Positions 4,293 to 63,760 of a stretch of DNA of 64,000 nt are shown here, in pieces. Both the position numbers and the translations under genes were made by a program. The stretch's first letter is position 1; each line of letters begins with the position of its first letter. A model generated the notes under the pieces. That model ran no database searches, had not been told where the DNA came from, and was given only the letters and a program-made list of their open reading frames with translations. The stretch is from Escherichia phage 132, in the sequence record MZ417521. One strand, written 5' to 3'.

Positions 4293-4317
4293 ATTATACT
4301 CCGGTAATCATAAAGCT
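4293..4317 (-). promoter_or_regulatory. possible middle-mode promoter (MotA-box-like AGCTTTA plus TATAAT) upstream of gene 39
   Basis: minus-strand TATAAT (plus 4293-4298) with AGCTTTA about 13 nt upstream, near the expected -30 MotA-box position. Confidence 0.3.
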
Positions 4318-4335
4318 AAAGGCCCGAAGGCCTTT
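4318..4335 (-). terminator. GC-rich tetraloop hairpin (ggcc-UUCG-ggcc on the transcript), terminator-like
   Basis: ggcccgaaggcc at 4321-4332 flanked by A/T runs, just 3' of the lipoprotein gene. Confidence 0.4.
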
Positions 4336-4595
4336 TATTTAAAACGGATAGTCGAATCTTTGAAGAATAGACCAGAACATACTGTTCCTTCTACTTTCTG
4401 CCCGGTAGGTCCAACAGCACGAAATCCAGTATGTTGGAAATCATTTTCAGAACAACCGAACCAATTATATCCAGTGATTTCAATATTAGTAAAACCACTT
4501 GAAGACAAAACTTTGGTTGCATTATCAGCATCAGTACATCCTACTAAAGACACTGTTAATACTAATGCTGCAATAGAACGATTAATATATTTCAT
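4335..4595 (-). CDS. putative lipoprotein, 86 aa
   Basis: N-terminal signal peptide with lipobox LVGC (MKYINRSIAALVLTVSLVGC); track start is GTG, first ATG at 4593-4595. Confidence 0.5.
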   Translation of the reverse strand: MKYINRSIAALVLTVSLVGCTDADNATKVLSSSGFTNIEITGYNWFGCSENDFQHTGFRAVGPTGQKVEGTVCSGLFFKDSTIRFK

Positions 4596-5807: not shown

Positions 5808-6077
5808 TTAATTAAACATTGGAGCGATACGTTTCAGAAGAGTAGCAGCACCTTTAGCGAATTTTACATCATGAAAAACAGTTTCTTCTTCTGTAACAAC
5901 TCGAACTTTAATATTTTCACAATCCCAATTTTTACGAACAATCTTCAAAAGCTGCAGTAAATCTTTACATTCAGCAATATCGATAACACATCCACGAGAA
6001 TCTTCCATTATCGCACGATAACCGTAAGCCATACCATAATCGTTAAAAGATTGCTCGATGATAATTAAGTTTTCCAT
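5808..6077 (-). CDS. hypothetical protein, 89 aa
   Basis: track start is TTG; ATG at 6075-6077 preceded by GGAGA. Confidence 0.45.
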   Translation of the reverse strand: MENLIIIEQSFNDYGMAYGYRAIMEDSRGCVIDIAECKDLLQLLKIVRKNWDCENIKVRVVTEEETVFHDVKFAKGAATLLKRIAPMFN

Positions 6078-6101
6078 TTTATTCTCCAAGTTATTTTCTG
6101 T

Positions 6102-6144
6102 ATCAGTAGTTGATATTGATATAGTACCATAATCAACTACTGAT
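6102..6144. repeat. perfect 13-bp inverted repeat (atcagtagttgat / atcaactactgat) with a 17-nt spacer containing a PeS-like promoter core
   Basis: left arm 6102-6114, right arm 6132-6144; spacer carries tatagtacc, matching the GGTACTATA core of the repeated promoter cassettes. Confidence 0.6.
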
Positions 6145-6173
6145 GTATATAGTTTTATGAAAAAATTTAAACT

Positions 6174-6665
6174 TTATGCATAGCGAGCTTTGCTGTAGTG
6201 TTTAATCCAACTTTCAGGAATGACTTTGTATGTTCCTAAAAATACCGTGTTGTACAGCTTAACACCGTCTTCTACCCACTGATCGGTAATGTATGCGCAC
6301 ATAGCACGAGTACGGTTAACAACCCCTTCCTCACCTTCAGTAAATTCAAACTCATAAGGAGCAACGAACTTAATAGCTTGACCGAGTTTCCACTTAAAGT
6401 CTACGCCTACATGCGAAGTATCAATCGTTTCAATTCCTTTAGCAGGAACAGCTTTTAAAAACGCAGACTCAAGAAATTTCGCACGAACATAGCCAAACTG
6501 GGGTTTAGACTTTCCATCTTTAGGAATGATACGCACTTTTACTTCAGAATCTTCATCTTTAACACCGTGTTTAAGCTGAATGCTTACAACTTCAACCAAT
6601 TTTCCTGCTGCTTTAGAACGGGATTTATCAGATACACGAGCAATTTCACCGATATTAATAATCAT
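6174..6665 (-). CDS. hypothetical protein, 163 aa (motB-region; paralog of 6739-7176)
   Basis: ATG ORF; C-terminal block ITDQWVEDGVKLYNTVFLGTYKVIPESW shared with the neighbouring ORF. Confidence 0.55.
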   Translation of the reverse strand: MIINIGEIARVSDKSRSKAAGKLVEVVSIQLKHGVKDEDSEVKVRIIPKDGKSKPQFGYVRAKFLESAFLKAVPAKGIETIDTSHVGVDFKWKLGQAIKFVAPYEFEFTEGEEGVVNRTRAMCAYITDQWVEDGVKLYNTVFLGTYKVIPESWIKHYSKARYA

Positions 6666-15372: not shown

Positions 15373-15380
15373 TATTTATA
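15373..15380 (-). promoter_or_regulatory. T4 late promoter core TATAAATA upstream of soc
   Basis: plus-strand tatttata at 15373-15380, exact match to the gp55-dependent late promoter consensus. Confidence 0.6.
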
Positions 15381-15425
15381 ATAAATTCTCGCGGCTTTTA
15401 AGTCGTCGTTTAAATAAACGAGCTA

Positions 15426-15944
15426 TTAATAACCTCGGTCTTGACGAGCGAAGTTTTCAGCATTCTTCAGATAATAAAGTTTAAAGATTTCTTCAGCAGT
15501 AAGGCCGAGACCTTGGAACATGTTCAGAACGAAATGAAGAATATCAATCATTTCGAATTTAATTTCCAACTGGTCTTGTGGAGACAAATCAGTAATCAGA
15601 GTTTCACGACGTTCACCATGCTGCGACTTCCAAGGCTTCCATACAGCAGATGCATCTTTTTCGCCATTGCTCATACCACCAAGAGATGTCAGAAGTTCAC
15701 GGAATTCATCGTCAATATAATCTTTCTGATTACGCAGCCAATCGACAACTTCACCTGCAGTAGCCAAATCATCAGGATGACGGTTATATTCAGGTTTATC
15801 TTTAGCTAAACGAACCTGCAAAGATTTCTGCATATCAAGCATAACTTGCAGTGGGTCTTTTTCGTCACCGAGAATATCCCAGTATTCATTTTGAGCTTTA
15901 TCAGCGCCTTCGATCAGTTGCGAACATTCATTAAAGTAAGCCAT
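15426..15944 (-). CDS. 56: dCTP pyrophosphatase (dCTPase/dUTPase, MazG-like), 172 aa
   Basis: track ORF has a 31-codon upstream extension; ATG at 15942-15944 preceded by AGGA gives the T4 gp56 length. Confidence 0.8.
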   Translation of the reverse strand: MAYFNECSQLIEGADKAQNEYWDILGDEKDPLQVMLDMQKSLQVRLAKDKPEYNRHPDDLATAGEVVDWLRNQKDYIDDEFRELLTSLGGMSNGEKDASAVWKPWKSQHGERRETLITDLSPQDQLEIKFEMIDILHFVLNMFQGLGLTAEEIFKLYYLKNAENFARQDRGY

Positions 15945-16015
15945 TATTTTTCCTTTCAATTCATGGGTTAGTAGATTAATTATACAATAAATATATAAAG
16001 CAATAAGGAGGACAT

Positions 16016-18329: not shown

Positions 18330-18357
18330 GATAATCTCCTCAGTAGTTTATGTTTAT

Positions 18358-18387
18358 ATAGTATCTCAATTTCTAACAAAAGTAAAC
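18358..18387 (-). promoter_or_regulatory. T4-type early promoter (-10 TACTAT)
   Basis: gtaaac 18382-18387, atagta 18358-18363 on plus strand. Confidence 0.5.
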
Positions 18388-20981: not shown

Positions 20982-22155
20982 TAAATTCTTCCATATCACT
21001 TAACTGTTCTAGGTCAGTTTCTAAATCAGCAGCTGATTTACTTTTACTTTCTGGAGATTTAAATTTTTCAACCTTTGAGTTAATCAATTCATCAACTTCA
21101 GCTTCAACAATTTCATTACTATCAATAGCACCTAACTGATAAGCACGTTTAATAGCATCTCGGAATGGTTGATGCTTAAATAAAGGACCCCAGAATGTAG
21201 TGCAGTTAGTATCTTTTGCACGCCAAGATTTTTCTTCGCGAATCATCTCGCCGGTTTCTTCGTCAAGAAATTCACGAGCATACCAGCCATTTTTAGGTTT
21301 TACTACAAATCCTAATTCTAGAGCCATATCTAACAATCCAGAATAAGGATCGATACCGCCGTCAAATTTAACATCAATAAAGAATTTACTTTTTTCTTTA
21401 ACGGTACGAGATTTTTCTACATTTAGAACAAATTGATACCCCTGAAGATCAGAACCATCTTTAATCTGACGTTTACCGATAATGAATACAGTATCAGCCG
21501 AATACATTACACCTGTACCGCCTGTCATTACGGTTTTGCTAAACATTTCAATTGTTTCAATTGTATGGTTAACCGCAACACATGGAATATTTTTAATGCT
21601 AAAATAAGGAGTAACAATACGGAATAATGACTTCAGTGATTTAGCACGAGTCATATCTGCCACAGATTTTTCATTCAAGGCATCTTCTGTTTCTTTCTTA
21701 GAAGCCATATTACCGATTGAGTCGATGAATACAATAACTTTTTCACCGCGCTCAATAGCTTCAAGCTGATTCACCATATCAATTTTCAGCTGTTCAACTG
21801 ACTGGATTGGCGTATGAATTACACGTTCCGGGTCAACTCCCATGGATCGCAAATAAGCTGGAGTAATACCAAATTCGCTATCATAGAATAGACAAACCGC
21901 GTCAGGATATTTGTTCAAATATGCCGCAACCATAGTCAAAGACATATTTGATTTAAAGTGTTTAGAAGGCCCTGCGAAAATAGTTAAACCAGACTGCATA
22001 CCGCCATCAATCGCACCAGAAATAGCAATATTAAGCATTGGGATTTTTGTACGGATTACATCCTTTTCATTAAAGAATTTAGATGTAGTCAGTTCAGCAG
22101 TCATTTTAGAAGTGGAAGCTTTAATCAAACGGGATTTTAAATCTGCAATAGACAT
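20974..22155 (-). CDS. uvsX: UvsX recombinase (RecA-like), 393 aa
   Basis: Walker A GPSKHFKS; C-terminal two thirds match recalled T4 UvsX, N-terminus diverged. Confidence 0.92.
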   Translation of the reverse strand: MSIADLKSRLIKASTSKMTAELTTSKFFNEKDVIRTKIPMLNIAISGAIDGGMQSGLTIFAGPSKHFKSNMSLTMVAAYLNKYPDAVCLFYDSEFGITPAYLRSMGVDPERVIHTPIQSVEQLKIDMVNQLEAIERGEKVIVFIDSIGNMASKKETEDALNEKSVADMTRAKSLKSLFRIVTPYFSIKNIPCVAVNHTIETIEMFSKTVMTGGTGVMYSADTVFIIGKRQIKDGSDLQGYQFVLNVEKSRTVKEKSKFFIDVKFDGGIDPYSGLLDMALELGFVVKPKNGWYAREFLDEETGEMIREEKSWRAKDTNCTTFWGPLFKHQPFRDAIKRAYQLGAIDSNEIVEAEVDELINSKVEKFKSPESKSKSAADLETDLEQLSDMEEFNE

Positions 22156-22232
22156 TCATTTTTTCCATAGGCATCATTATATTTTCCTCACTGGTTAAAG
22201 ATAGAGTAATTATAACACAATAAATTTAGGCA

Positions 22233-23075
22233 TTAATCAACTGCTATTGGATGAATAGCATTAAACTTATAAAATGCTTCTGATTTTTCTTTACGCGAAA
22301 CACACATGCGAAGAACCTTTAATGGCTCGTCTTCTTCACCCAACGATTTTCGTTTTTCAATATTCGATGTTTTCCAACGAGCTTGCTCTGGAAACTCTCT
22401 ATTGATTTGCTCAAGCGCTCTATTATGTTTAGAATTACTACGAATTGAACTACACCCGCCAGGAGCTTGTGCTTTTCCAGATACAACCAGATATTTGAAC
22501 AAGGCCAAATGCGGATAACCTTGATTAATTAAATTGAGAAATGCATACATATCTTCGCATAAATCAATTTTTCCATACCCAATTTGTTCTGTCGTAAGTT
22601 TTCCAAGGTCATACCATGTATTCGTGAATCCATATGAATTTTCACGATAATTACCCCAAGATGAAGTAATTTTAAAAATTGGTAGACGAGCATGGCCATG
22701 ATAATACCCACAATCCATGGCATCTTCGACGTATTGAATCAATTCATAGAACTGTTCACGGGTCAATTGATTGACTTTATCCACACAACGACGGTCATCT
22801 CTTTTTCGCATTGAACTCATACGAATAGTAGTATCATCGTCAATCATCCAGATTCGTTGACCTGCATACATATCAGTAATTGCTTTACGAGTTCCAGCAA
22901 TTCCATTAACACCATCAGGAATAGTTATAATTTTAGCTCTAGACCCATAAGCATCATTATAAGCTTTTTCTTCGTGTTCACGCACTACAATATGAGGTTC
23001 ATAATTAGTCGGAAACATATCAAGGGCAGAAACTGCCCCTACACGTTGATAGCTCGGAATTACGAATTGAATCAT
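22233..23075 (-). CDS. putative DNA glycosyltransferase (DxD motif), about 280 aa, at the T4 beta-gt locus
   Basis: MIDDDT DxD-type motif; ATG at 23073-23075 forms an ATGA overlap with gene 42 stop; shorter than and dissimilar to T4 beta-gt. Confidence 0.45.
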   Translation of the reverse strand: MIQFVIPSYQRVGAVSALDMFPTNYEPHIVVREHEEKAYNDAYGSRAKIITIPDGVNGIAGTRKAITDMYAGQRIWMIDDDTTIRMSSMRKRDDRRCVDKVNQLTREQFYELIQYVEDAMDCGYYHGHARLPIFKITSSWGNYRENSYGFTNTWYDLGKLTTEQIGYGKIDLCEDMYAFLNLINQGYPHLALFKYLVVSGKAQAPGGCSSIRSNSKHNRALEQINREFPEQARWKTSNIEKRKSLGEEDEPLKVLRMCVSRKEKSEAFYKFNAIHPIAVD

Positions 23076-23812
23076 TTCCACTCACCGTTATAATCTTTTT
23101 TCACAATATGAGTTTCGCCAGTATTCCACCAATGATCAACCAAGTAAAAATGACGAGAATATACATGAAGACTTCCAACATTCCATATAATAGAACCTGC
23201 TTTATACTTACGAGTTGAATCGCCTGCATTCAAATCAGATACTAATTTATCTAATACGTATTTTTGCCATGCATAATCATTACGGAATCCGAAGACCACG
23301 TCATTTGAGCGCATGCTTACTACTGCATTGACTTTCTTATCACGAATCAGGTACTGTACTGTATTAGTACACATGAAATCTGACATACCATCTTTATTGT
23401 AGTCAAATTGCATGGATGGACGAGTATAAATCATGATACCACGTCGAGAATCAGGATTTTGACCAAGTTCAGCTAAACACATATCATACTGGGCATAGTT
23501 ATCTTCTGACCAAATAGCCCAGCCATAATTCGAGTTAATTTCGCCTTTAGAAGATGCTACCTGCTGCCAAATCTTTGGTGTTTCACCTGGAATATCTTTA
23601 ACAAACAGACTTTGAGACTTGTACCATTCAAGTTCACGCTGAATGTATTCATCATTAAGAGCGCCAAAAATAAACGGTTCATCTGCTACAAATGATGCGC
23701 CAATAATTTCAATAGTTTTAACGCCAGTTTTATCAACTACGAAATCTTTTTCTTTTAATGCAAGCCCCAAATGAAGACGGATTTCTTCAACTGTCATAGA
23801 GTCACTAATCAT
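23072..23812 (-). CDS. 42: dCMP hydroxymethylase, 246 aa
   Basis: thymidylate-synthase-like fold; same length as T4 gp42; position between the glycosyltransferase and imm. Confidence 0.85.
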   Translation of the reverse strand: MISDSMTVEEIRLHLGLALKEKDFVVDKTGVKTIEIIGASFVADEPFIFGALNDEYIQRELEWYKSQSLFVKDIPGETPKIWQQVASSKGEINSNYGWAIWSEDNYAQYDMCLAELGQNPDSRRGIMIYTRPSMQFDYNKDGMSDFMCTNTVQYLIRDKKVNAVVSMRSNDVVFGFRNDYAWQKYVLDKLVSDLNAGDSTRKYKAGSIIWNVGSLHVYSRHFYLVDHWWNTGETHIVKKDYNGEWK

Positions 23813-24224: not shown

Positions 24225-24605
24225 TCACTTAGTCAAATTTTTTACACATGAATTATAAGAATTCACTACATACTCCATCGGAGCATTTTTACCGGTACGC
24301 CACTGGTAATTATTAGCCCAATTAGCCCAAAGCTCGGCGCAGTAGTTTTCAATTTTTTCTTCGCGTGTAATTACATCCGAATTACGATATGCTTGAGCAG
24401 ATTCATCTGGACGAATAGCTTCGTCAAAATTCGCCTGCATTTGTTCTACTGTCTGTTTTGGAGCTTCTTTATAACACTTGACATTAGGATTATAAAACTT
24501 GCTTGAACAGTTTACAATTTTTCCTACATCAGACTGATTTACTACCGGTCCTTGAGCTACACAGCCAGTAAGACCTAATGCAATAACCAAAATAGCGATT
24601 TTCAT
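24225..24605 (-). CDS. putative lipoprotein, about 126 aa
   Basis: track start is TTG; ATG at 24603-24605 behind the conserved PeS leader GGAGAATGAA; signal peptide with lipobox LTGC. Confidence 0.5.
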   Translation of the reverse strand: MKIAILVIALGLTGCVAQGPVVNQSDVGKIVNCSSKFYNPNVKCYKEAPKQTVEQMQANFDEAIRPDESAQAYRNSDVITREEKIENYCAELWANWANNYQWRTGKNAPMEYVVNSYNSCVKNLTK

Positions 24606-24630
24606 TTCATTCTCCAAATCTGTATCCGTA

Positions 24631-24672
24631 GTTGATAGTTGTATAGTACCACGGAAGAACAGGGATGTAAAC
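24631..24672 (-). promoter_or_regulatory. PeS-like early promoter cassette (GTTTAC-N18-TACTAT plus conserved leader)
   Basis: gtaaac 24667-24672, atagta 24643-24648; 20-bp block gttgatagttgtatagtacc (24631-24650) recurs at 49965, 52101 and, shortened, 55691. Confidence 0.55.
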
Positions 24673-24755
24673 AGTTTTGTGAAAAAATTTTTAATGAATT
24701 CAAAGGGTCCAGAATCATCTGTTTTTCATAAGTATAGATTTATATTACTTGTATG

Positions 24756-24776
24756 AAAAAGGGACCCGGAGGTCCC
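24756..24776 (-). terminator. intrinsic terminator downstream of gene 43 (gggacc-UCCG-ggtccc plus U-run)
   Basis: gggacccggaggtccc at 24761-24776 preceded on plus strand by aaaaa. Confidence 0.7.
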
Positions 24777-24789
24777 TAGATTTATTCTA

Positions 24790-27540: not shown

Positions 27541-27560
27541 AAATAAGGGGCCGAAGCCCC
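27541..27560 (-). terminator. GC tetraloop hairpin (ggggc-UUCG-gcccc) between regA and gene 43
   Basis: ggggccgaagcccc at 27547-27560 followed on the transcript by UUAUUU. Confidence 0.45.
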
Positions 27561-27564
27561 TTGC

Positions 27565-27933
27565 TTAATTACCAATCGTATATTTAGGAACGAGTTTCCA
27601 TTCATGTTTTTGCTTAAAAGAAATAACTCGGAAGTTATTAGTTAAATCTTTCATAAAAGTTCTTTGACCGGGAGCGATTTCAATCAGTCCCCAATCTTCT
27701 AACAGCCATGCAATCGAATCACGACGAACTTCATCTTCTTCTGTCATTTCAACTTGGCGACCATCCATACGAAGCATTTCTTTAAAATGAACGATATAGT
27801 ATAGTCCTTTTTTCTGAAGAATATGACAGGATTGATACAGAACTTTATCTTTATTATTAGCAATTCCCATGCGAGTCAAAGTTTCTTTAACTTTCAGAAA
27901 ATCTTCAGGTTTTTTAAGAGTAATTTCAATCAT
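27565..27933 (-). CDS. regA: translational repressor RegA, 122 aa
   Basis: 122 aa, matching recalled T4 RegA; position upstream of 43. Confidence 0.85.
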   Translation of the reverse strand: MIEITLKKPEDFLKVKETLTRMGIANNKDKVLYQSCHILQKKGLYYIVHFKEMLRMDGRQVEMTEEDEVRRDSIAWLLEDWGLIEIAPGQRTFMKDLTNNFRVISFKQKHEWKLVPKYTIGN

Positions 27934-29459: not shown

Positions 29460-29491
29460 AATTTCCTCATTCAAGTTTTAGTGTAAATTAT

Positions 29492-29509
29492 AAAGGGCCG
29501 AAGCCCTTT
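29492..29509 (-). terminator. GC tetraloop hairpin between genes 45 and 44
   Basis: aaagggccgaagcccttt palindrome at 29492-29509. Confidence 0.35.
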
Positions 29510-29510
29510 A

Positions 29511-30197
29511 TTAAAAATCGTGGGTAGAATCAGCTTCAAGAGCTACTACATAATTCGCATGTTCACCTTCAAATTTAGCAGCGCCTTGTTTACCTTTTGC
29601 CCAGAGCAGAAGTTTATAATTTCCTGGTTGCATTTTCATATTTGCCATATTGATAATGAAATTAAATGTATTTTCACCATCATAATCATCAAGAGTCAAA
29701 GAATATTTAACACGGGTCAAAGCAGAATCTTCTACTTTATTAAAACCGTTAATTACGATTTTACCTTCTTTTACTGTGATAGCAATTGTATCAATCTGCA
29801 GACCACGAGATACACGCAATAGCTGTTGAAGGTCTTCAGCTTTAATTTCAGTAACAACAGATGCTACCGGAAATGGAATTGGTTTATTAGGAGCAACTAC
29901 TGTACTCGGATCGGCTGCTGGCCAAAAAATTGTTGAACGGGCATCAGCAATTTTAATATTTCCATCTTCTGACTGGGAAATTTCTGCATCATCATTAACT
30001 AGAGACAGAATACCGAGAAAACCGTTCAAATCGTAAATTGCTACATCAAAATCAATAACGTCAGAAATATTTGCTTCCGCATAAGTTGTACCATTAACTG
30101 CTCGAGTCATAATAAATTGACCGGATTTAAGCATAATACCAGAGTTAATAGTAGCGAAATTTTTCAGCAGAGCAGTAGTATCTTTAGACAGTTTCAT
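29511..30197 (-). CDS. 45: sliding clamp gp45, 228 aa
   Basis: same length as T4 gp45; position between rpbA and 44. Confidence 0.85.
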   Translation of the reverse strand: MKLSKDTTALLKNFATINSGIMLKSGQFIMTRAVNGTTYAEANISDVIDFDVAIYDLNGFLGILSLVNDDAEISQSEDGNIKIADARSTIFWPAADPSTVVAPNKPIPFPVASVVTEIKAEDLQQLLRVSRGLQIDTIAITVKEGKIVINGFNKVEDSALTRVKYSLTLDDYDGENTFNFIINMANMKMQPGNYKLLLWAKGKQGAAKFEGEHANYVVALEADSTHDF

Positions 30198-30252
30198 GTA
30201 ATTTCCTTCAATTCAAATGAGATTTAATTTTATAATTAATTTAATAAAGCAA

Positions 30253-30642
30253 TTAACGATTAAAATCAGCCGCAATTGTTTCAGCAACAATTTGAGCAGC
30301 AACAATTAGACGTTCATCTGCATTACCGCAATAATCATCTTCAAGGCGTTCACCACATGAAGTCATAATAAATTTAGCACCAGCATTTAGAGATTCTGCC
30401 GTATGTTTGCGCATCAGTTCAATCCATTTATCACTCACTTCACGATCGATAGCTTCATAATACGCATGACGAGCAGGTGCAGATTTAATTTTGTTCTGGA
30501 TAACTTCCATTGCGTTATCAGAAAGAGACAAAACCCATGCTCGACGAATTTTATTTTGGTTTTGTGGATTTGATTCAGAACGCACGTGTTTTGGCTGAAT
30601 ATCTTTTACATCAACAGTATAATTCACAGTAATTTTAGTCAT
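30253..30642 (-). CDS. rpbA: RNA polymerase-binding protein RpbA, 129 aa
   Basis: T4 RpbA length and position next to gene 45. Confidence 0.6.
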
Positions 30643-34178: not shown

Positions 34179-34201
34179 TATATCAAACTCCGTATAAAGC
34201 T

Positions 34202-34219
34202 AAAGGGCCGAAGCCCTTT
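34202..34219 (-). terminator. GC tetraloop hairpin overlapping the alpha-gt stop codon
   Basis: aaagggccgaagcccttt at 34202-34219; same sequence as the hairpin at 29492. Confidence 0.35.
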
Positions 34220-35420
34220 ATTTTGTAATAATGTCAAACTGTTCTTTAAAGCAGAAGCTTGAATCTTGATGCTGATACAAAAATTCATAAGCTTTTTCAC
34301 GTTCACGGTCATAAAGAGCTCGGTCAGATGACAGTTCTTTAATACGTTCAAATGTTGATTCCATGTCATTTTCATCAAACCAAACGATACCGCTATCATG
34401 AGAAATTAATGGAGTATTATCAACACGGAATTTTAAATTTTCGCCCGTAGATTTCCAAAATACCGGAATTGTTCCACATGCACCAAGCTCGAGATGAGTG
34501 TATTCTAAAGAACGCTGTAGATATTTTTTGTCCAACTTACTCAGCTGATAACCAAATCCGGATTTACTCATGCGTTCAAGCATTTCGCTATTTACATAAC
34601 GGTCGAGAATTTGCGTTGGCAAATTAGGAGCAATTTTAATTTGGTCTACTTGATGAAGACGATAATACTCGTATGGAATTCCTTTTTCTTTAATAGGAAT
34701 GAACGCTGGAGAACGTTCCAGACCTTCCATAATAGTACTTAGTCCTGCAGGTTTAAGATGTTTTTCGTGAAAATCAAACATCTGATAAAAGCCTTTCCAT
34801 GTAGTAGTACGACCAATCCAACGGTTGATATTCATGTTAATTTCAGAAACATCTTTCCAGTAGGTTGATCGAACCTTCGCAATATCCATAGGAGGCTGGA
34901 AGTTATATACGGTCGGTGCTTCTTCAATATCATCAAACAGAGAAACTGTTTCTGGATACCATTCTTTCATTAAAACTTTATTAAAATCACCATTATCAGA
35001 ATGGCTAAAAATAACATCAGCTCGACGAACAGTTTCTTCTAATCCCAAATTTCGGCGTAAAGAAAGAGAAGAATGGTCATGCTGATAAACTACAACACGA
35101 ACCGAAGGTTTAATATTATCAATAATTTTTTTATAGTTATTAATTGTGTCTTCTTCAACTGAAGTAGCAGGAACTGAATTGATAATTAGAATATCACAAT
35201 CATTTACCAACTTAAGTGTTTTATCGTATTCTTTTGCCAATAAAACCGGAATTGAAAATGACTTATAATCATGTGCGCAATTACGAGTAAATGATTTATC
35301 TTTAGCATAAACCAAAGTTACTTCATGACCATTTTTAATAAACCAATCACGTTGCTCAAGAGAAAATTTAGTTACACCGCAACCTTCAAGACCTCGAGCC
35401 ATAAAAATACATACTTTCAT
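34218..35420 (-). CDS. a-gt: DNA alpha-glucosyltransferase, 400 aa
   Basis: 400 aa with close match to recalled T4 alpha-gt (..CIFMARGLEGCGVTKFSLEQRDWFIKNGHEVTLVYAKDKSFTR..). Confidence 0.8.
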   Translation of the reverse strand: MKVCIFMARGLEGCGVTKFSLEQRDWFIKNGHEVTLVYAKDKSFTRNCAHDYKSFSIPVLLAKEYDKTLKLVNDCDILIINSVPATSVEEDTINNYKKIIDNIKPSVRVVVYQHDHSSLSLRRNLGLEETVRRADVIFSHSDNGDFNKVLMKEWYPETVSLFDDIEEAPTVYNFQPPMDIAKVRSTYWKDVSEINMNINRWIGRTTTWKGFYQMFDFHEKHLKPAGLSTIMEGLERSPAFIPIKEKGIPYEYYRLHQVDQIKIAPNLPTQILDRYVNSEMLERMSKSGFGYQLSKLDKKYLQRSLEYTHLELGACGTIPVFWKSTGENLKFRVDNTPLISHDSGIVWFDENDMESTFERIKELSSDRALYDREREKAYEFLYQHQDSSFCFKEQFDIITK

Positions 35421-35470
35421 TTAATATCCTCATTGTTTTGGTTTATTTTACCAAAAATTTATAAAGCAAT

Positions 35471-37835: not shown

Positions 37836-37857
37836 TCCAAAAAGGGCCGAAGCCCTT
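37836..37857 (-). terminator. terminator-like GC tetraloop hairpin followed by a U-rich tract on the transcript
   Basis: aagggccgaagccctt at 37842-37857 overlapping the stop of the 66-aa gene. Confidence 0.5.
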
Positions 37858-38056
37858 AGCTAAACTGTTTGGCACCCTTCCAGCCTTCATACATCATTGC
37901 GGCTGATATTAATATTGCCCCTGAACAGCTTGAATATTTGTGATTCCAAAACCAGTTCAGAAAAACTTCGTCATCAATACCTTGGGCTATCATATTTTCA
38001 AAGAACTGACGACGAGCTTCGGCAATTCGTTGTGATAATTTAGATTCAGGATTCAT
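37856..38056 (-). CDS. small hypothetical protein, 66 aa
   Basis: ATG ORF. Confidence 0.4.
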   Translation of the reverse strand: MNPESKLSQRIAEARRQFFENMIAQGIDDEVFLNWFWNHKYSSCSGAILISAAMMYEGWKGAKQFS

Positions 38057-40751: not shown

Positions 40752-42561
40752 GTTTTACTCGTTTTACCATTTCTTTCATTTTACCTAAATTCCATGGAAC
40801 AACGCTAGGAGTTCCAAGATATCCGCATGTTCTTCTTATGGTGTTCATCTTTTTAGGATCAGTTTCTCCACAAATAGAACAAACAAATCCGTTTTCAGTA
40901 GGAGTCATTTCATGGGTACTTCCGCATGTAAAACATTTATCTACTGGCATATTAACACCAAAATAATCTAAATGTTGTGCAGCATAATCCCATACAGCCT
41001 CAAGACCCTTTAGGTTATTTTTCATATCAGGAAGTTCAACATAAGAAATGTGACCACCTGTCGCAATGAAATGATATGGGGCTTCGCGAGAAATCTTTTC
41101 AAATGGAGTAATATTTTCTTCTACTGAAACGTGGAAACTGTTAGTGTACCAGCCTTTATCGGTAACATCTTTTACACTTCCATATTTTTCGGTATCAAGT
41201 TTACAGAAGCGATAGCACAGGTTTTCAGCAGGAGTAGAATACAAACTAAAAGCAAAACCAGTTCTTTCAGTCCATTGTTTAAGATGAGTATTCATTTTAG
41301 TTAAAATTTCTTGTCCAATATCACGACCAACAAGAATATTCAATTCGTGAATACCAATGTATCCTAGGGACACTGAACTTCTACCGTTTTTAAATAACTC
41401 AATTATGTCATCGTCAGGTTTAAGACGAACCCCGAATGCACCTTCTTGGTAAAGAATAGGAGCAACAGTCGCTTTAACTCCTTTTAAGGAACTAATTCTA
41501 CACATCAATACTTCAAAACATAAATCCATTCGTTCATTGAACAATTCAGTAAATTTCTGTTCATTGAACTGTGTTCCAATATAAGAATCTAACGCAATAC
41601 GAGGAAGATTCAGTGTTACAACACCAAGATTATTACGTCCATCAAGAATTTCATTACCAGTCGAATCTTTCCATACGCCCAAGAAACTACGGCAACCCAT
41701 TGGAGAAACAGGAATAGATGAACCTGTGATAGCTTTATTGTTCTTAGCCGAAATGATGTCAGGATACATTCTTTTGCTTGCACACTCTAGAGCAAGCTGC
41801 TTAATATCATAGTTCGGATCGTCTTTATAAAGATTAACACCTTCTTCAACGAACATAACAAGCTTAGGGAAAATAGGAGTTATCCCATCACGACCGAGAC
41901 CTTTAATGCGATTTTTCAGAATTGCTTTCTGAATCATTCGTTCAGTCCAGTCAGTTCCCGTACCAAATGTAATTGTTACAAAAGGCGTTTGTCCGTTTGA
42001 ACTAAAGAGAGTATTTACTTCATATTCATAAGCTTGGAACGCATCGTATACGTCTTTTTCTGTTTTAGACTGGGCGTAATTCAACGCGTCAGCGATTTGC
42101 CATTTTTCTGCGTCCTCAATATGTTTTGCATAGGTGCGTTTAACATAAGGAGAAAGGACTTTATCTACATTCGCAAAAGTCGTTCCACCATATTGATGGG
42201 AAGCAACCTGTGCAGTAATTTGTGCCATAATTGCAGTAGCAACGCCAATTGATTTAGGAGTTTCAATCTGTGCATTACCGAGCTTAAATCCGTTCTCAAG
42301 CATTCCTTTTAAATCTACTAAACAGCAATTAGTAAATGGAAGAGCAGGGGAATAATCAATATCGTGGAAATGGATAATTCCGCTTTCATGCGCTTTCATA
42401 ATAAAAGACGGGACCATATTTTTGGCAATGTGTTTAGACACAATACCAGCCATAAGGTCCCGTTGAGTTGGAAAAACACGAGAATCTTTATTAGCATTCT
42501 CGTTTAAAAGGTCTTTATTAGTTTTATGAATTAATCCTTCAATTTCTTTTTCAATTGTCAT
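40744..42561 (-). CDS. nrdD: anaerobic ribonucleotide reductase NrdD (glycyl radical enzyme), 605 aa, intronless
   Basis: C-terminal glycyl radical motif RRTCGYLG and zinc ribbon (CFTCGS...CSICG); T4 NrdD length as one ORF. Confidence 0.9.
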   Translation of the reverse strand: MTIEKEIEGLIHKTNKDLLNENANKDSRVFPTQRDLMAGIVSKHIAKNMVPSFIMKAHESGIIHFHDIDYSPALPFTNCCLVDLKGMLENGFKLGNAQIETPKSIGVATAIMAQITAQVASHQYGGTTFANVDKVLSPYVKRTYAKHIEDAEKWQIADALNYAQSKTEKDVYDAFQAYEYEVNTLFSSNGQTPFVTITFGTGTDWTERMIQKAILKNRIKGLGRDGITPIFPKLVMFVEEGVNLYKDDPNYDIKQLALECASKRMYPDIISAKNNKAITGSSIPVSPMGCRSFLGVWKDSTGNEILDGRNNLGVVTLNLPRIALDSYIGTQFNEQKFTELFNERMDLCFEVLMCRISSLKGVKATVAPILYQEGAFGVRLKPDDDIIELFKNGRSSVSLGYIGIHELNILVGRDIGQEILTKMNTHLKQWTERTGFAFSLYSTPAENLCYRFCKLDTEKYGSVKDVTDKGWYTNSFHVSVEENITPFEKISREAPYHFIATGGHISYVELPDMKNNLKGLEAVWDYAAQHLDYFGVNMPVDKCFTCGSTHEMTPTENGFVCSICGETDPKKMNTIRRTCGYLGTPSVVPWNLGKMKEMVKRVKHA

Positions 42562-49420: not shown

Positions 49421-49948
49421 TTATGCGAGTACCGTCTTTAACCGTTCTTCAAACTTCCGAAGAGTATTTTGGCGTTCAGCTCTTTGCTTTTTGTAAGTTT
49501 CAATACGCTCTGAAATGAGAGTGTATCGTTCATTTACTGATTCTTTCATAAAATCAGGAATTTCACGAGAAGCTTTAATCTCGTCAAATTTATCAATAAC
49601 AGCTTGCTCTTCAGCAATTAAGTTATCATACATTAAAATATCTTTCTTGATAAACTCAATATCTTCTTGAGTTACACGAGATAATTTAGATGCTTTATCC
49701 TTTTTGTACTGTTCGTTAGTATCACGAGACCAGTGTAATGTACGATTTTTATTCGTATTTTTGTAAATTTCTACAATACCAATCTCATCAATAATAACGA
49801 TCCAATTCCAACGGGATTTGTAAATTTGTCCTCCATCAACAGTGATTTCACCTCCGATTGAGATGTCATTAAAGAACTTGCTTTGCGCTTCAGATTTAAA
49901 TTTACCATCGTTGTAATTTACTAAGTTGAAAATATCTTTAGCGTTCAT
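49421..49948 (-). CDS. hypothetical protein with C-terminal coiled coil, 175 aa
   Basis: ATG directly behind a PeS promoter-leader cassette. Confidence 0.55.
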   Translation of the reverse strand: MNAKDIFNLVNYNDGKFKSEAQSKFFNDISIGGEITVDGGQIYKSRWNWIVIIDEIGIVEIYKNTNKNRTLHWSRDTNEQYKKDKASKLSRVTQEDIEFIKKDILMYDNLIAEEQAVIDKFDEIKASREIPDFMKESVNERYTLISERIETYKKQRAERQNTLRKFEERLKTVLA

Positions 49949-49964
49949 TTTCTGTTCCTCCGTA

Positions 49965-50006
49965 GTTGATAGTTGTATAGTACCACAGAGGAACAGTCTT
50001 GTAAAC
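49965..50006 (-). promoter_or_regulatory. PeS-like early promoter cassette
   Basis: gtaaac 50001-50006, atagta 49977-49982; conserved 20-bp block 49965-49984; flanked by 7-bp inverted repeat gttcctc/gaggaac. Confidence 0.55.
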
Positions 50007-50393: not shown

Positions 50394-51113
50394 TTAGGAT
50401 TCTTCTAAATGTCTTTTCTGAAAAGTTGATACCATACTACGATACGGTTCATTTGGATACCCGTGTTTTATAGCTTCCTTTGTAAATTTTCTCCATCCAT
50501 ATTTAGTTTCTTTCCAAAGCTCGAATAATTCATCTTCATATTGCCATATAGTTAAATGAGAACGCTTTGCAGCTTTAATTCCATTAATATGCTTTTCTTT
50601 TACTACAGGATTGCTTAGTTTCTTTTTAATAATATTACTAACTTTTCTAACAAAAACTGGGTCCTTATATCGTTGCGAAGTTTTTATTGAAGTGTTTAAT
50701 TTAGCTTCCGGCGTGGATGTGACCTCTTTCATCTTTTTCTTCATATGCTGTATATGATTAGGATTTTTCCATAAATTTATAGAATGCTTTTTGCATTTTA
50801 TCCTAGTTTCATCTGCAACCTTTCCTCCTTCACCCCCGTATGACAGGTTAACACAGTTTTTTCCATATTTCAATTTACCTGCCATGATATATAATATTTC
50901 AGCTTGTACCATTTTATCATAATTATCAAAAACTTCTAAAACCGTTTTTGATAATATGTGGTCATTTGACACTTTTACACGTTCTATATAATTTCCACTA
51001 CCAACATACGAATCATTGATGTTATTAGTTATATGTCGACCATAATAGTATTTCTTAATACCTGTCTTTAAATTTAATATTTCAGTTTTATAGATAGTAA
51101 AATATTTTTTCAT
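50394..51113 (-). CDS. free-standing GIY-YIG-like homing endonuclease, 239 aa
   Basis: N-terminal FTIYKTEI...YYYGRH (GIY-YIG-like with YYG); basic C-terminal half; start ATG overlaps the stop of the AAA+ gene. Confidence 0.6.
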   Translation of the reverse strand: MKKYFTIYKTEILNLKTGIKKYYYGRHITNNINDSYVGSGNYIERVKVSNDHILSKTVLEVFDNYDKMVQAEILYIMAGKLKYGKNCVNLSYGGEGGKVADETRIKCKKHSINLWKNPNHIQHMKKKMKEVTSTPEAKLNTSIKTSQRYKDPVFVRKVSNIIKKKLSNPVVKEKHINGIKAAKRSHLTIWQYEDELFELWKETKYGWRKFTKEAIKHGYPNEPYRSMVSTFQKRHLEES

Positions 51114-52078
51114 TTTAATAATACCGTTTCAGCAATTTCTTCCCAATGATTTTTGTCGGTCATAATGAAGTCAGCAAGATAAAGAGCAGTACGCAGTGAA
51201 ACATTGCGTAAACGATTAACATTGACTTTCATCCATGATAATGCTTTATAAGTTTCTTCATCAGAAAGACCGCGCTTTTGCATCATGTCAGTTGAAAGAA
51301 TAACATCTTCAACCCTGACCATAATTTCTTCATTAGTATGAACACCCAAATCTAAATAAACTGAGCGGGACACTAATGCTTGTAAATGTGGAGCAAGTTT
51401 AGTACCACGGTCTAATTCGCGGTCAATGTCAACGTTTGTGATAAAAACAATCGTTCCTTTAAATTCAAACTCACGGTCAATGCCTTTTTCTTCTAAGTAA
51501 GAAGATGCAGTGCTCCAGCAGACTTTACGGGTCTCTCCAGTGTCCAGAGCAGCTTTTAGAAGATTAAGAATGTCCATATCAGAGAAAACATCCACATCAT
51601 CAATCAAAAGGACAGAATTCTCTTCACGATTGTTCCAAAGCTGCTCATAAAGACCAATACCAGAGATTTTACCATTAATGCTTTTATATTCAATGTATCC
51701 ATTATCATTTGCTTTATTTAAAGCTTTATCTAAAGAATACGTTTTACCAATACCTGCTGCGCCAGAGATAATTAATGAACGAATATTTCCATTAATAATA
51801 CCATTCGTCATCATTCCCATAACATTAAATCTTTTATTAATGCGGGTTTTCATATCTTCATATGATTCTTTAACTTCTTCAACTTTTACACCATCATATG
51901 AAATATCTGATTTGTAAACCCAAACACCGCGACGTTTACCGTCAATTTCAACAAAAACTTTACCATCTCCTTGTGCATCTACCGGAGCATTATCTGGGAA
52001 CCATTCGCCTAAGAGCTCAAAAGTTCCAGAGATTTCTTTACCGAAGTAGATACCCTTATTGATAGTTACAGTTTTCAT
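51110..52078 (-). CDS. AAA+ ATPase, about 322 aa
   Basis: Walker A GAAGIGKT and Walker B LLIDDVD; start set to ATG 52076-52078 because the track ORF runs through the upstream terminator and promoter. Confidence 0.6.
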   Translation of the reverse strand: MKTVTINKGIYFGKEISGTFELLGEWFPDNAPVDAQGDGKVFVEIDGKRRGVWVYKSDISYDGVKVEEVKESYEDMKTRINKRFNVMGMMTNGIINGNIRSLIISGAAGIGKTYSLDKALNKANDNGYIEYKSINGKISGIGLYEQLWNNREENSVLLIDDVDVFSDMDILNLLKAALDTGETRKVCWSTASSYLEEKGIDREFEFKGTIVFITNVDIDRELDRGTKLAPHLQALVSRSVYLDLGVHTNEEIMVRVEDVILSTDMMQKRGLSDEETYKALSWMKVNVNRLRNVSLRTALYLADFIMTDKNHWEEIAETVLLK

Positions 52079-52100
52079 TTTATTCTCCAAATCTGTATCA

Positions 52101-52142
52101 GTTGATAGTTGTATAGTACCATAAAGCTTTATGCTTGTAAAC
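52101..52142 (-). promoter_or_regulatory. PeS-like early promoter cassette driving the AAA+ ATPase gene
   Basis: gtaaac 52137-52142, atagta 52113-52118; conserved block 52101-52120; leader GATACAGATTTGGAGAAT-AAA-ATG nearly identical to the copy at 24.6 kb. Confidence 0.55.
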
Positions 52143-52164
52143 CGTTTTGTGAAAAAATTTCTGA

Positions 52165-52192
52165 AATAAAAAAAGGGAGCCCGAAGGCTCCC
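52165..52192 (-). terminator. intrinsic terminator (gggagcc-UUCG-ggcuccc plus U-run) downstream of the NTase-like gene
   Basis: gggagcccgaaggctccc at 52175-52192 preceded on plus strand by aaataaaaaaa. Confidence 0.7.
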
Positions 52193-52194
52193 TA

Positions 52195-55485: not shown

Positions 55486-55673
55486 TATTCCACCACATAT
55501 GAAAGAGAGAATATTGCACATGCCATGTGAGTTGCAACTTCATCACACATATTATAACGTTTCTTAAGAAGTTCTACAAGTTCTTCACTAGTAACTTCAT
55601 CCATGTCGACGAAAAAATCACCATTAATGATGACGTAGATATTTCCTTCTTGATTGAGTGCTTCAATTTTCAT
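55485..55673 (-). CDS. small acidic hypothetical protein, about 62 aa
   Basis: ATG at 55671-55673 behind PeS leader AAGAGGAGAACATC. Confidence 0.4.
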
Positions 55674-55690
55674 GATGTTCTCCTCTTTAT

Positions 55691-55730
55691 CCGATAGTTG
55701 TATAGTACCACGGCTCAAACGAAAAGTAAA
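55691..55730 (-). promoter_or_regulatory. PeS-like early promoter cassette
   Basis: gtaaac 55725-55730, atagta 55701-55706; 18-bp core block 55691-55708 (the first two bases of the 20-bp block differ). Confidence 0.5.
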
Positions 55731-55741
55731 CCGGTAAAATG

Positions 55742-55763
55742 AAAAAAGTCTCCCGAAGGAGAC
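55742..55763 (-). terminator. intrinsic terminator (gucucc-UUCG-ggagac plus U-run)
   Basis: gtctcccgaaggagac at 55748-55763 preceded on plus strand by aaaaaa. Confidence 0.7.
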
Positions 55764-55768
55764 TAATG

Positions 55769-59411: not shown

Positions 59412-59873
59412 TCATTGAGTTTTAATTACTGCTTTAGAAGCCTTTCCTGGTAAACGACGACTGTTGATAATTGCCATCCTGCATTGAAGTGACGGGTTTT
59501 TGAACTTCTCATTAGGCTTACAAACTGTAAATCCAAGCCAAAGATTTCCATCTGTGATTTCTAAACGCCCAGGACGATATTCAACACCATCAATAAAATC
59601 CTCGTCAATGTCAGGACGCGGAGGCATACTCAGGAATTCATTAACTTCTAAAACATGGTCTTTTATTTTATGGAATAATTCAAAAACATATGTCTCATCA
59701 ATCTCCCGTTGAATTGCGCGATCAAGAAGATGCTGAGAATATTTTAGATGAAACGATGAGACCCCTGCTGCTTTTGATGCCTCACGAATCTCATTGTTAA
59801 TTTGACGAAACTCCGACTCAAAGTGACGACGAAGCTTATTTCGACGGATAAAAACTTCTGTATTGATAGTCAT
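59412..59873 (-). CDS. regB: endoribonuclease RegB, 153 aa
   Basis: T4 RegB length and N-terminus; ATG preceded by AGGAG and an early promoter. Confidence 0.8.
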   Translation of the reverse strand: MTINTEVFIRRNKLRRHFESEFRQINNEIREASKAAGVSSFHLKYSQHLLDRAIQREIDETYVFELFHKIKDHVLEVNEFLSMPPRPDIDEDFIDGVEYRPGRLEITDGNLWLGFTVCKPNEKFKNPSLQCRMAIINSRRLPGKASKAVIKTQ

Positions 59874-59900
59874 GTTATTCTCCTCTTAACTGATAGAAAA

Positions 59901-59930
59901 ATTATACCACAGTCAAGAGGAAAAGTAAAC
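59901..59930 (-). promoter_or_regulatory. T4-type early promoter upstream of regB
   Basis: gtaaac 59925-59930, attata 59901-59906 on plus strand. Confidence 0.55.
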
Positions 59931-61926: not shown

Positions 61927-62006
61927 TTTATTCTCTCTAAGTTTGGGCCATTCCATGGCGCATGAATTGTCCATTTCTGTATTTACCACTCCAAGTAATT
62001 ATGAAT

Positions 62007-62036
62007 ATACTATCACAATTCTAGGAGAAAGTAAAC
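62007..62036 (-). promoter_or_regulatory. possible early promoter (weak -10 TAGTAT)
   Basis: gtaaac 62031-62036; -10 candidate 62007-62012. Confidence 0.3.
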
Positions 62037-62038
62037 TG

Positions 62039-62341
62039 TTATTTACCTTTAATTACTTTAGCTGCTTCGATAGCCGCTTGCTGAAGGTCATCCATAGACA
62101 TACCGAATTTAGAAGCAAAGTTATCAATTTTCTTTTCGACAGCATTCAAAGGCTTGGCCTGTTTACCTTCATTAGCGCCAGGAAGAGCGAGAATACGCTC
62201 TTTGTCAATATAAAGGCTTACAAGTTTCTTACGGTCTTTATCGGACAAATCGTGAAATGAATGAGCCTTTTTATTTATAGCGGCTTCTAATTTACCTGCA
62301 CTCACTCGCGCTTCAGTAATAAATTCTTGATATGTTTTCAT
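62039..62341 (-). CDS. ipII: internal protein II with capsid-targeting sequence, 100 aa
   Basis: N-terminus MKTYQEFITEA matches the T4 internal-protein capsid-targeting sequence; T4 IPII length. Confidence 0.65.
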   Translation of the reverse strand: MKTYQEFITEARVSAGKLEAAINKKAHSFHDLSDKDRKKLVSLYIDKERILALPGANEGKQAKPLNAVEKKIDNFASKFGMSMDDLQQAAIEAAKVIKGK

Positions 62342-62362
62342 ATGTTTCCTTTAAATGTAAAT

Positions 62363-62377
62363 AGGCCGTATAGGCCT
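62363..62377 (-). terminator. short GC hairpin (aggcc-GUAUA-ggccu) between ipIII and ipII
   Basis: aggccgtataggcct palindrome at 62363-62377. Confidence 0.3.
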
Positions 62378-62379
62378 TA

Positions 62380-62958: not shown

Positions 62959-63022
62959 TTTTTGTTTCCTTGTTTGTTTTGATAGAGTAATTATACCATA
63001 TTAATACTTAAGCGTAAACAAT

Positions 63023-63283: not shown

Positions 63284-63289
63284 TTTTCC

Positions 63290-63703: not shown

Positions 63704-63730
63704 AATTTCCTCCAAGTAGTTGATGAATGT

Positions 63731-63760
63731 ATAGTATCAAAGTCCTTGGAGGAAGTAAAC
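63731..63760 (-). promoter_or_regulatory. T4-type early promoter (-10 TACTAT) upstream of denV
   Basis: gtaaac 63755-63760, atagta 63731-63736 on plus strand. Confidence 0.5.

Follow-up and report, generated by a model that had tools for sequence, protein, structure and literature searches.

Repeated promoter-leader blocks in Escherichia phage 132 as T4-type early promoters that probably also provide portable recombination homology

The 64,000-nucleotide stretch of Escherichia phage 132 analyzed here (sequence record MZ417521; the whole stretch is hereafter called the window) carries a repeated 20-bp block, GTTGATAGTTGTATAGTACC, which occurs in exact form at 24631, 49965 and 52101 and with three mismatches at 6109-6128 and 55690-55709. 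We conclude with high confidence that these five copies represent T4-type early promoters (Pe) together with their 5' leaders, and that they probably, in a secondary role, provide portable homology for recombination. Copies of this kind are already known, both as T4 early promoters and as cassettes of the promoter-early stem-loop (PeSL) type. Shuffled sequence gave 0.00 matches on average to the block, so that its recurrence is far above chance.

Judged from its sequence, the window is a Tequatrovirus (T4/T6-like) segment, which shares 93-97% identity with T4, T6, T2 and several hundred further genomes of the genus and is collinear with T4 (AF158101) from base 11 to approximately 66400. The genes lie on the minus strand, as indicated by GC skew and the T4 annotation, and the repeated block must therefore be taken as its reverse complement, GGTACTATACAACTATCAAC. 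On this strand, the block consists of a TGn-extended -10 (TGGTACTAT) and the first transcribed bases. It is located 18 nt downstream of GTTTAC in four copies and of ATATAC in the 6109 copy (the 18-nt spacer from GTTTAC equals 17 nt by the TTTACA convention, with TACTAT as the -10), and is followed after 28-43 nt by GGAG or GAGG and then ATG. The pattern GTTTAC-N-TAnnnT was found at 17 sites in the window, every one on the minus strand, with the plus strand having none; a generic sigma-70 scan of the window was not discriminating, with 44 sites against 35.8 expected. Copies 6109, 24631 and 52101 have in common an upstream AAATTTTTTCACAAAAC block, corresponding to the UP element (repeat family D4), as well as a near-identical leader, ribosome binding site and ATG at 6071-6101, 24599-24629 and 52072-52102 (family D9, 74-94% identity), in agreement with the three cases reported by the first-pass annotation. 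The UP regions of the 55690 and 49965 copies are A/T-rich too, but less similar to AAATTTTTTCACAAAAC. Looser members of the repeat family were located at 18340-18387 and 63713-63760 (family D1), and in the same self-comparison the largest dispersed repeat families of the window all turned out to be parts of such cassettes or of their terminators. The first-pass annotation had correctly listed the three exact sites, as well as a degenerate copy within 6102-6144, which is the match at 6109-6128. The 18-bp version that it placed at 55691 is a real copy, although the identity extends over the last 17 bases of the block and not over 18, and its assignment of a GTTTAC -35 to each copy holds for four of the five, since the 6109 copy and its T4 orthologue have ATATAC.

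The genes downstream of the five copies are an 89-aa open reading frame (ORF) before cef, imm.1, nrdC.8, nrdC.10 and mobD.5 (Table 1). The product of imm.1 is a DUF5481 protein with a lipoprotein-type signal ending in LTGC, and nrdC.10 showed weak matches to P-loop NTPases. The copies had been thought to bracket accessory genes; only those at 49965 and 52101 flank such a block (nrdC.10, an endonuclease-like ORF and nrdC.9), and what holds for each copy is that it precedes an accessory gene. Terminator-like hairpins with UUCG loops and T-runs are present immediately upstream of the 52101 and 55690 copies, and since these two copies directly follow an intrinsic terminator, each begins an insulated transcription unit. 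The annotation of phage Lutter has a terminator at the site corresponding to the hairpin at window 24755-24778. The nrdC.8 cassette has no upstream terminator, and nrdC.9 ends at 50009.

The same cassettes are present in T4 at the orthologous positions 27080 (imm.1), 53943, 55384 and 58780, with one more upstream of e.8. In GenBank record U76612 (T4), annotations are given for 'early promoter 54.4' and 'early promoter 57.9', both preceded by a terminator, which correspond to the 52101 and 55690 copies, respectively, as well as for -35/-10 signals before nrdC.8, which correspond to the 49965 copy. At the degenerate 6109 copy the T4 sequence is identical, and the T4 ORF there is internally deleted. 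When the copies were compared with the definition of an early promoter (-35 GTTTAC(A/T), a 17+/-1 nt spacer and TGn-TAnnnT), four of the five matched in full, and the 6109 copy had ATATAC with TGG-TACTAT kept; the A/T-rich UP element and the orthology to annotated T4 promoters were likewise found. The T4 early promoters and those of the window agree in gene-relative position, in the UP/GTTTAC/TGn/TAnnnT and post -10 consensus, in strand and in upstream terminators. Only small variants set the window apart, for example GATACAG in the leader as compared with GATACGG in T4, and an imm.1 spacer reading ATCCCTG.. as compared with AAGACTG.. in T4. Window site 7747 corresponds by position to T4 site 8218, which we take, from its map-unit name alone, to be early promoter P8.1. 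T4 early promoters have been described as UP/-35/TGn/-10 promoters with additional consensus regions, and P8.1 is named there (PMC2988021). A motif YCTATCAA(C/A), at approximately +3 to +11, is kept in early promoters of several genera (agacctatcaac, taccctatcaa and acaactatcaac), and if transcription starts about 7 nt after the -10, this motif would be the mRNA 5' end. An indel junction in contig L039, described below, falls exactly at this motif.

These correspondences suggest the following sequence of events. Host sigma-70 RNA polymerase would bind the A/T-rich UP element, the -35 GTTTAC(A/T), the 18-nt spacer with TGG at its end (extended -10) and the -10 TACTAT, and would start transcription approximately 7 nt downstream of the -10, within the conserved ACAACTATCAAC. 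The transcript would begin with a short leader carrying a GGAG Shine-Dalgarno, followed by the ATG(AAA) start. The promoters would fire straight after infection, leading to the expression of accessory early genes (the 89-aa ORF, imm.1, nrdC.8, nrdC.10 and mobD.5). The functional role of the block is given by its position and by the T4 annotation, and the block appears to be conserved mainly because each part is a functional promoter or leader element. The first-pass annotation had expected transcription to initiate at these sites, and by analogy with the T4 orthologues, annotated as early promoters in U76612, initiation in this phage is probable.

Between the UP element and the ATG, the imm.1 and nrdC.10 copies were found to be almost the same except for their spacers, which are wholly different; such sharing of functional elements between unrelated spacers argues for functional conservation, not only for recent duplication. 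Related spacers were found in the imm.1 and nrdC.8 copies and in T4 e.8. Moreover, several cassettes are mosaic: in T4 e.8 an imm.1-type spacer is followed by a leader of the 6109 type, the T4 imm.1 spacer is half nrdC.8-type, the T6 imm.1 leader has a 3-nt deletion of the nrdC.10 type, and the T2 promoter at the imm.1 site joins the imm.1 upstream part to the nrdC.8 spacer and leader. The leader variant GATACAG is present in both window copies, and GATACGG stands at the same sites in T4, T6 and T2. The mosaic cassettes and related spacers therefore indicate that dispersed copies exchange sequence, and both function and common descent apply to the similarity of the cassettes. From the chimeric cassettes and the junctions described below, we infer a recombination mechanism in which approximately 100 bp of dispersed near-identity would supply the highly active recombination system of T4 with portable homology. 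Copies would thereby exchange sequence and, at some sites, small ORF modules would be gained or lost, in line with the PeSL model.

The window was aligned to T4, T6, T2, PST and eight IMG/VR contigs, and each junction was sampled from approximately 500 Tequatrovirus records; the background indel rate was obtained from the 12-genome comparison only. T-even loci were scarce in the IMG/VR scans, the 17-mer giving 30 stretches, NrdC.8 giving 8 loci and RegB giving 11. At the nrdC.11/nrdC.10 junction (52101 copy), insertions were present in 23 of the 54 sampled genomes, in at least five size classes (approximately +260, +430, +480, +620 and +740 bp). The T2 insert consists of a 162-aa ORF with its own promoter and terminator, and is flanked by direct repeats of terminator, UP element and -35 (CCCTTTT..ATTTCAAAAATTTTTCACAAA..GTTTAC). 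Contig L039 carries an insertion of three ORFs, whose left junction falls within the 20-mer, following ACAACTATCAA. An extra ORF of approximately 245 bp occupies the promoter-imm.1 interval at the 43/imm.1 junction (24631 copy) in 32 of the 41 sampled genomes; the window, T4, T6 and PST are without it, and what separates the two forms is a deletion from one ATGAAAAT start region to another, with 8-bp repeated endpoints. At the motB/cef junction (6109 copy), the 89-aa ORF region is kept in the 213 of 501 records whose match spans 80% or more of the query. The remainder, T4 included, mostly show an internal deletion of about 200 bp starting eight bases after the ATG, and in a third class the break lies at the cassette's upstream edge. 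The support for shuffling thus comes from the junction structure at these three hot spots. Most other indels are homing-endonuclease genes, an intron and small-ORF swaps inside operons, away from promoters; they include segA, segF, mobA-D, I-TevII and the endonuclease-like ORF at 50394-51113.

Two observations on the inserted and variable regions may be recorded here. The 162-aa ORF (L045; T2, 29790-30275; also in HMD-9, HY01, PEC04 and SV76) is named 'ModA' or 'RNA polymerase ADP-ribosylase' in some records, and would be an accessory ADP-ribosyltransferase-like gene on a promoter-terminator module. The Kha5h record (NC_054905), noted in connection with window 6102-6144, carries an 'ori type 2 repeat' feature at some point within its 801-bp motB-cef match.

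Inverted repeats around the -10 had been proposed for several copies, with the -10 in a hairpin loop. Such hairpins were significant at 6109 and 49965 only. The perfect 13-bp repeat at 6102/6132 was confirmed (z -4.8), and its stem does not cover the Shine-Dalgarno. The repeat reported as 7 bp at 49954/49988 is real but longer, with 9 perfect pairs (15 with G.U). In this nrdC.8 hairpin the 5' arm lies in the promoter spacer, the -10 and the start site are in the loop, and the 3' arm covers the Shine-Dalgarno GGAGG; a more distant relative, L042, keeps the pairing with other arms (CTCCAGTAG/CTACTGGAG). The hairpin of the imm.1 copy (z -1.8) was taken as chance, as it is not kept in T4. The early promoters of regB and denV show strong hairpins as well (Table 1), and the arms of the T4 denV orthologue, CTCCTGTAG/CTACAGGAG, are compensatory with respect to those of the window. 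Promoter spacers folded with their own leaders at -11.1 kcal/mol, as compared with -7.0 kcal/mol with other leaders (permutation p < 5e-5, n = 21), and 11 of the 21 window early promoters in the tally folded at -14 kcal/mol or below, as compared with 2% of random 55-mers. At least three of the four Shine-Dalgarno bases were paired in 20 of 28 strong hairpins. In the regB hairpin, 8 of 15 pairs are changed on both sides among 9 lineages, and the covariation score of 0.256 compares with 0.122 for shuffles (0 of 500 reach 0.256) and 0.03-0.09 for slid controls, the arm alignment having been anchored by hand on CUCC/GGAG and hence being less neutral. The regB pairing is kept with differing arms in Tequatrovirus, Mosigvirus, Gelderlandvirus, Karamvirus, Kagamiyamavirus, Dhakavirus, Jiaodavirus and further contigs, and the invariant core of the stem is CUCC/GGAG, the Shine-Dalgarno itself. 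When RNAalifold was applied to a MAFFT alignment of the regB promoter regions, no consensus structure emerged, owing to shifts in the register of the stems. Compensation of the regB kind was also seen at denV (T4 against the window) and nrdC.8 (window against L042).

These data raise the possibility of a translational role. At 49965 (nrdC.8), regB, denV and P8.1, the promoter spacer is complementary to the leader and Shine-Dalgarno, so that read-through transcripts from upstream would fold a hairpin hiding the ribosome binding site. Transcripts from the gene's own promoter would lack the 5' arm and be translatable; because this arm lies upstream of the start site, the hairpin is possible only in read-through transcripts. 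Genes bearing such a hairpin would then likely be translated from their own early promoter only. The four remaining copies (6109, 24631, 52101 and 55690) do not sequester the Shine-Dalgarno in this way, and the translation-control reading is not applicable at 6109 since its 13-bp stem leaves the Shine-Dalgarno free. We tentatively extend this idea, as a possibility short of an even chance, to the view that many T4-like early sigma-70 promoters are embedded in a hairpin, with the spacer selected to pair with its own leader and Shine-Dalgarno, as a general 'promoter-gated translation' (regB, denV, nrdC.8 and motB.2). A comparable arrangement is known for T4 e, soc, 49, I-TevI and segB, where a hairpin hides the ribosome binding site and an internal promoter is present, so that long transcripts are silent and promoter-proximal ones are translated (PMC3014915, PMC2988022). 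The likeness lies in a 5' arm upstream of the internal start and a 3' arm over the Shine-Dalgarno or AUG. The reviews consulted, however, list this control only for late genes with late promoters, whereas the window genes are not members of the late-gene set and have an early sigma-70 promoter whose -35/-10 spacer forms the 5' arm. The effect on translation is known for the late genes, and for the window hairpins it is suggested by analogy with them. Tight control of regB has been stated as needed in a review, and control by the regB hairpin fits this need.

Several points weigh against our interpretation. Promoter activity in this phage is predicted from orthology with T4, and the 6109 copy, with its poor -35 (ATATAC), may be weak or inactive. 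The argument from concerted change is based on few positions. Samples drawn from about 500 Tequatrovirus records contained no gene-sized indel at nrdC.9/nrdC.8 (49965 copy) or at rI.-1/mobD.5 (55690 copy), boundaries at these two sites appearing only in more distant genera. A rough tally placed approximately 4 of 26 distinct indel sites within 100 bp of an early promoter, and such a promoter is present at approximately 15 of 110 gene junctions, so that indels show no enrichment for early promoters as a class. As for the hairpins, no significant structure was found around the -10 at 24631, at 52101 (z +0.6) or at 55690 (z -1.35). Sense and antisense folding differed (-18.4 vs -15.0 kcal/mol, p = 2.6e-4), but this comparison and the G.U counts gave no separation of RNA from DNA structure and were dropped as evidence for RNA structure, because random 55-mers selected for stable sense folds show the same bias.

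Resemblance among the copies could in principle reflect pure convergence, each copy being independently selected toward an optimal promoter/leader consensus with no part played by recombination or shuffling. The conserved stretches are known functional elements (UP, -35, TGn, -10 and Shine-Dalgarno), the nrdC.10 and mobD.5 spacers are unrelated to those of other copies, two sites are monomorphic, and the rough tally gave no overall promoter enrichment at indels. Spacers, however, have no known sequence requirement and yet are related among imm.1, nrdC.8 and e.8, cassettes are chimeric between genomes, indel junctions fall within cassette homology (the T2 direct repeats, L039 in the 20-mer and the ATGAAAAT endpoints at imm.1), and at least five different insertions were found at the nrdC.10 site, so that we regard convergence by itself as unlikely. 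It is still less likely that the cassettes are dedicated mobile elements, that is, circles of promoter and ORF excised and integrated as in the PeSL mini-circle model, maybe with a stem-loop-recognising protein. General homologous or microhomology recombination suffices for the endpoints, which are 8-bp ATGAAAAT repeats and 3-bp microhomologies; the sequence of the stem-loop varies from copy to copy, so that a protein would have no common recognition site; and no recombinase was found, though none was looked for. Such elements would nevertheless account for the T2 module upstream of nrdC.10, the flanking direct repeats of which have a geometry that would excise as a circle, and for the Pe and denV module, which stands at a different position in the window than in T4; mini-circles have been demonstrated for phi1/RB49 (PMC2839356). 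We attach practically no probability to the repeats being attachment (att) sites of an integrative element, although the T6 RefSeq record NC_054907 (L044) has a misc_feature 'attL' at 24507-24546 on the imm.1 cassette (window 24631-24672). This identity was rejected on the T4 annotation (U76612), which gives the sequence as a promoter, and the repeats are not a direct-repeat pair bounding an integrated element with an integrase: there are five or more copies in one orientation, all of them preceding start codons, and the phage is a virulent T-even. The label has the appearance of an artefact, produced when an automatic finder of prophages or repeats meets a dispersed promoter repeat.

Where the inverted repeats are concerned, they might act as DNA or transcription signals (melting cruciforms, attenuators or terminators, sites of RNA processing or stability) and not on translation, which we consider somewhat improbable. 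The pairing of at least three of the four Shine-Dalgarno bases in most strong hairpins and the regB stem core that is the Shine-Dalgarno itself do not suit a purely transcriptional role, and neither the 49965 nor the 6109 hairpin is followed by a U-run. In addition, promoters right after a strong terminator (52101, 55690 and 15054) are without a strong hairpin, a weak trend from few cases (3 vs 0) that would fit redundancy of two devices. On the other hand, a PeSL stem-loop terminates transcription in a reporter (Arbiol et al., PMC2839356), the hairpins at 6109, 18702, 19200 and 54919 enclose only the -10 and leave the Shine-Dalgarno untouched, and the sense/antisense test is compatible with a structure at the DNA level.

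Early promoters that provide portable homology, the interpretation that we prefer, can be set against published cassette systems. In T-even phages, the variable small genes of the internal-protein (IP) loci are reportedly surrounded by repeated signals for early promoters and translation, and Repoila et al. in 1994 are said to have proposed shuffling by homologous recombination (as cited in PMC2839356). The repeated promoter and translation signals are the likeness, and the window has three IP genes of its own; the position of the five window copies outside the IP loci is the difference. The first-pass annotation had recognized the cassettes as a promoter-early type, which is borne out, but under the name 'promoter-early-stop', the proper name being 'promoter-early stem-loop' (PMC2839356, PMC4122927). 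The definition of PeSLs comes from phi1/RB49 and combines an AT-rich region, an early promoter, a Shine-Dalgarno and an ATG with a stem-loop that can take any of five positions; promoter and terminator activity and mini-circles were shown experimentally in phi1/RB49 (Arbiol et al. 2010, PMC2839356). For PST/T4, to which the concept was later extended, the consensus is TTTACW-N17-TAYWAT and the stems lie directly before the promoter (Comeau et al. 2014, PMC4122927). The window copies resemble PeSLs in these elements, in their repetition in hyperplastic regions, in their position before small accessory ORFs and, at three of the five sites, in lying next to indels. The published PST/T4 consensus fits all of them except for the -35 of the 6109 copy, and promoter, stem-loop, Shine-Dalgarno and start codon are combined in one repeated unit. 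The stem-loops are terminators next to 52101 and 55690 and about 100 nt upstream of 24631, and -10-enclosing stems at 6109 and 49965. Thus, whereas the PST/T4 PeSL stems upstream of the promoter are terminators, two of the five window copies, and many other early promoters, also enclose the -10, a subclass described only for phi1/RB49 PeSLs. The coincidence of cassettes with indel boundaries in relatives, anticipated by the first-pass annotation, was found at three of the five sites, with junctions inside the cassette, but not at nrdC.8 and mobD.5, the two sites without plasticity in the samples from the genus.

Table 1. Coordinates of the early-promoter cassettes, hairpins and other features of the window
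Feature	Position	Strand	Details
imm.1 early-promoter cassette	24603-24707	-	exact 20-mer 24631-24650
imm.1 cassette parts	UP ~24673-24707; -35 GTTTAC 24667-24672; TGG + -10 TACTAT 24643-24648		18-nt spacer
imm.1 cassette leader	24606-24642; ATG 24603-24605	-	with GGAG
Hairpin like intrinsic terminator, after gene 43	24755-24778	-	AGGGACCTCCGGGTCCC then T5; ~100 nt upstream of imm.1 promoter
nrdC.8 early-promoter cassette	49946-50006	-	-35 50001-50006; -10 49977-49982; ATG 49946-49948; 20-mer 49965-49984
nrdC.10 cassette	52076-52193	-	-35 52137-52142; -10 52113-52118; ATG 52076-52078; 20-mer 52101-52120
nrdC.10 cassette terminator	52174-52193	-	GGGAGCCTTCGGGCTCCC then T7; UP element next
mobD.5 cassette	55671-55764	-	-35 55726-55731; -10 55702-55707; ATG 55671-55673; 17-nt identity 55693-55709
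mobD.5 cassette terminator	55747-55764	-	GTCTCCTTCGGGAGAC then T6
Degenerate copy upstream of 89-aa ORF (5808-6077) preceding cef	6075-6185	-	UP-like region; 43-nt leader; ATG 6075-6077
Degenerate copy promoter	-35-like ATATAC 6145-6150; TGG + TACTAT 6121-6126	-	
Perfect 13-bp inverted repeat enclosing -10	6102-6114 / 6132-6144	-	ATCAGTAGTTGAT / ATCAACTACTGAT; -20.1 kcal/mol, z -4.8
nrdC.8 hairpin	49952-49996	-	9 perfect pairs 49952-49960 / 49988-49996, 15 with G.U; -23.2 kcal/mol, z -6.7
regB early promoter, same architecture, not one of the five copies	59871-59930	-	spacer pairs with leader and Shine-Dalgarno, UUUUCCUCUUGACUG / CAGUUAAGAGGAGAA; z -5.9
denV early promoter, looser family member	63713-63760	-	hairpin TTCCTCCAAG/CTTGGAGGAA sequesters Shine-Dalgarno; z -5.9
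YCTATCAA(C/A) motif examples	window 24631-24642; loci L041-L043, L058, L062		
Sites differing from T4	2783-2848, 15380-16005, 22143-23090, 35411-35436, 42023-42026		comparison of window vs T4
239-aa ORF between nrdC.10 and nrdC.9	50394-51113	-	not in T4, PST; present in T6
denV	63290-63703		own early promoter at 63760; 78% identical to T4 denV
Internal-protein (IP) genes	86-aa IP 63023-63283; ipIII-like 62380-62958; ipII-like 62039-62341		
Family D6 GGGCC-GAAG-GCCC hairpins	4317-4338, 27544-27565, 29491-29512, 34201-34222, 37840-37861		near-identical; self-comparison of window

Some further features of the window were noted in the comparison with T4. The mobA/gene 60 insertion, segF, dam, segA, mobB and the nrdD intron with I-TevII are absent from the window, and the place of the beta-glucosyltransferase is taken by another sequence, which matches the T2/T6-type beta-glucosyl-HMC-alpha-glucosyltransferase. 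The 239-aa ORF, the T6 equivalent of which is annotated as 'DNA endonuclease', has an N-terminus that looks GIY-YIG/seg-like, but it gave no Pfam match at E <= 0.01. At 61990-63760 the gene order is unlike that of T4, with denV upstream of three internal-protein genes, as compared with T4 denV downstream of ipII, and a conserved leader MK(T/M)Y(K/Q)EFI starts all three IP genes (62.0-63.3 kb). Two copies of the family D6 hairpin are 100% identical over 22 nt, and the family probably represents intrinsic terminators, or hairpins for RNA stability, that follow core replication genes.

Through strong early promoters of this kind the phage takes over the host RNA polymerase. The copies as such are textbook T4 biology, which automatic annotation mislabels, as in the T6 RefSeq 'attL'. 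The new content is modest and consists of the site-by-site evidence for hot spots and the covariation-supported hairpin architecture around early promoters. Among approximately 500 relatives, some copies are real insertion hot spots (43/imm.1, nrdC.11/nrdC.10 and motB/cef) and others never vary, which tempers the general PeSL claim. If promoter-gated translation is true, the genes concerned would be silent on read-through (delayed-early or middle) transcripts, the e/soc/I-TevI late-gene paradigm would be extended to immediate-early genes, and the conserved, covarying spacers, normally unconstrained, would be accounted for across at least eight genera. The complementarity of spacer and leader, together with the cross-genus covariation, suggests a testable translational control of immediate-early genes.

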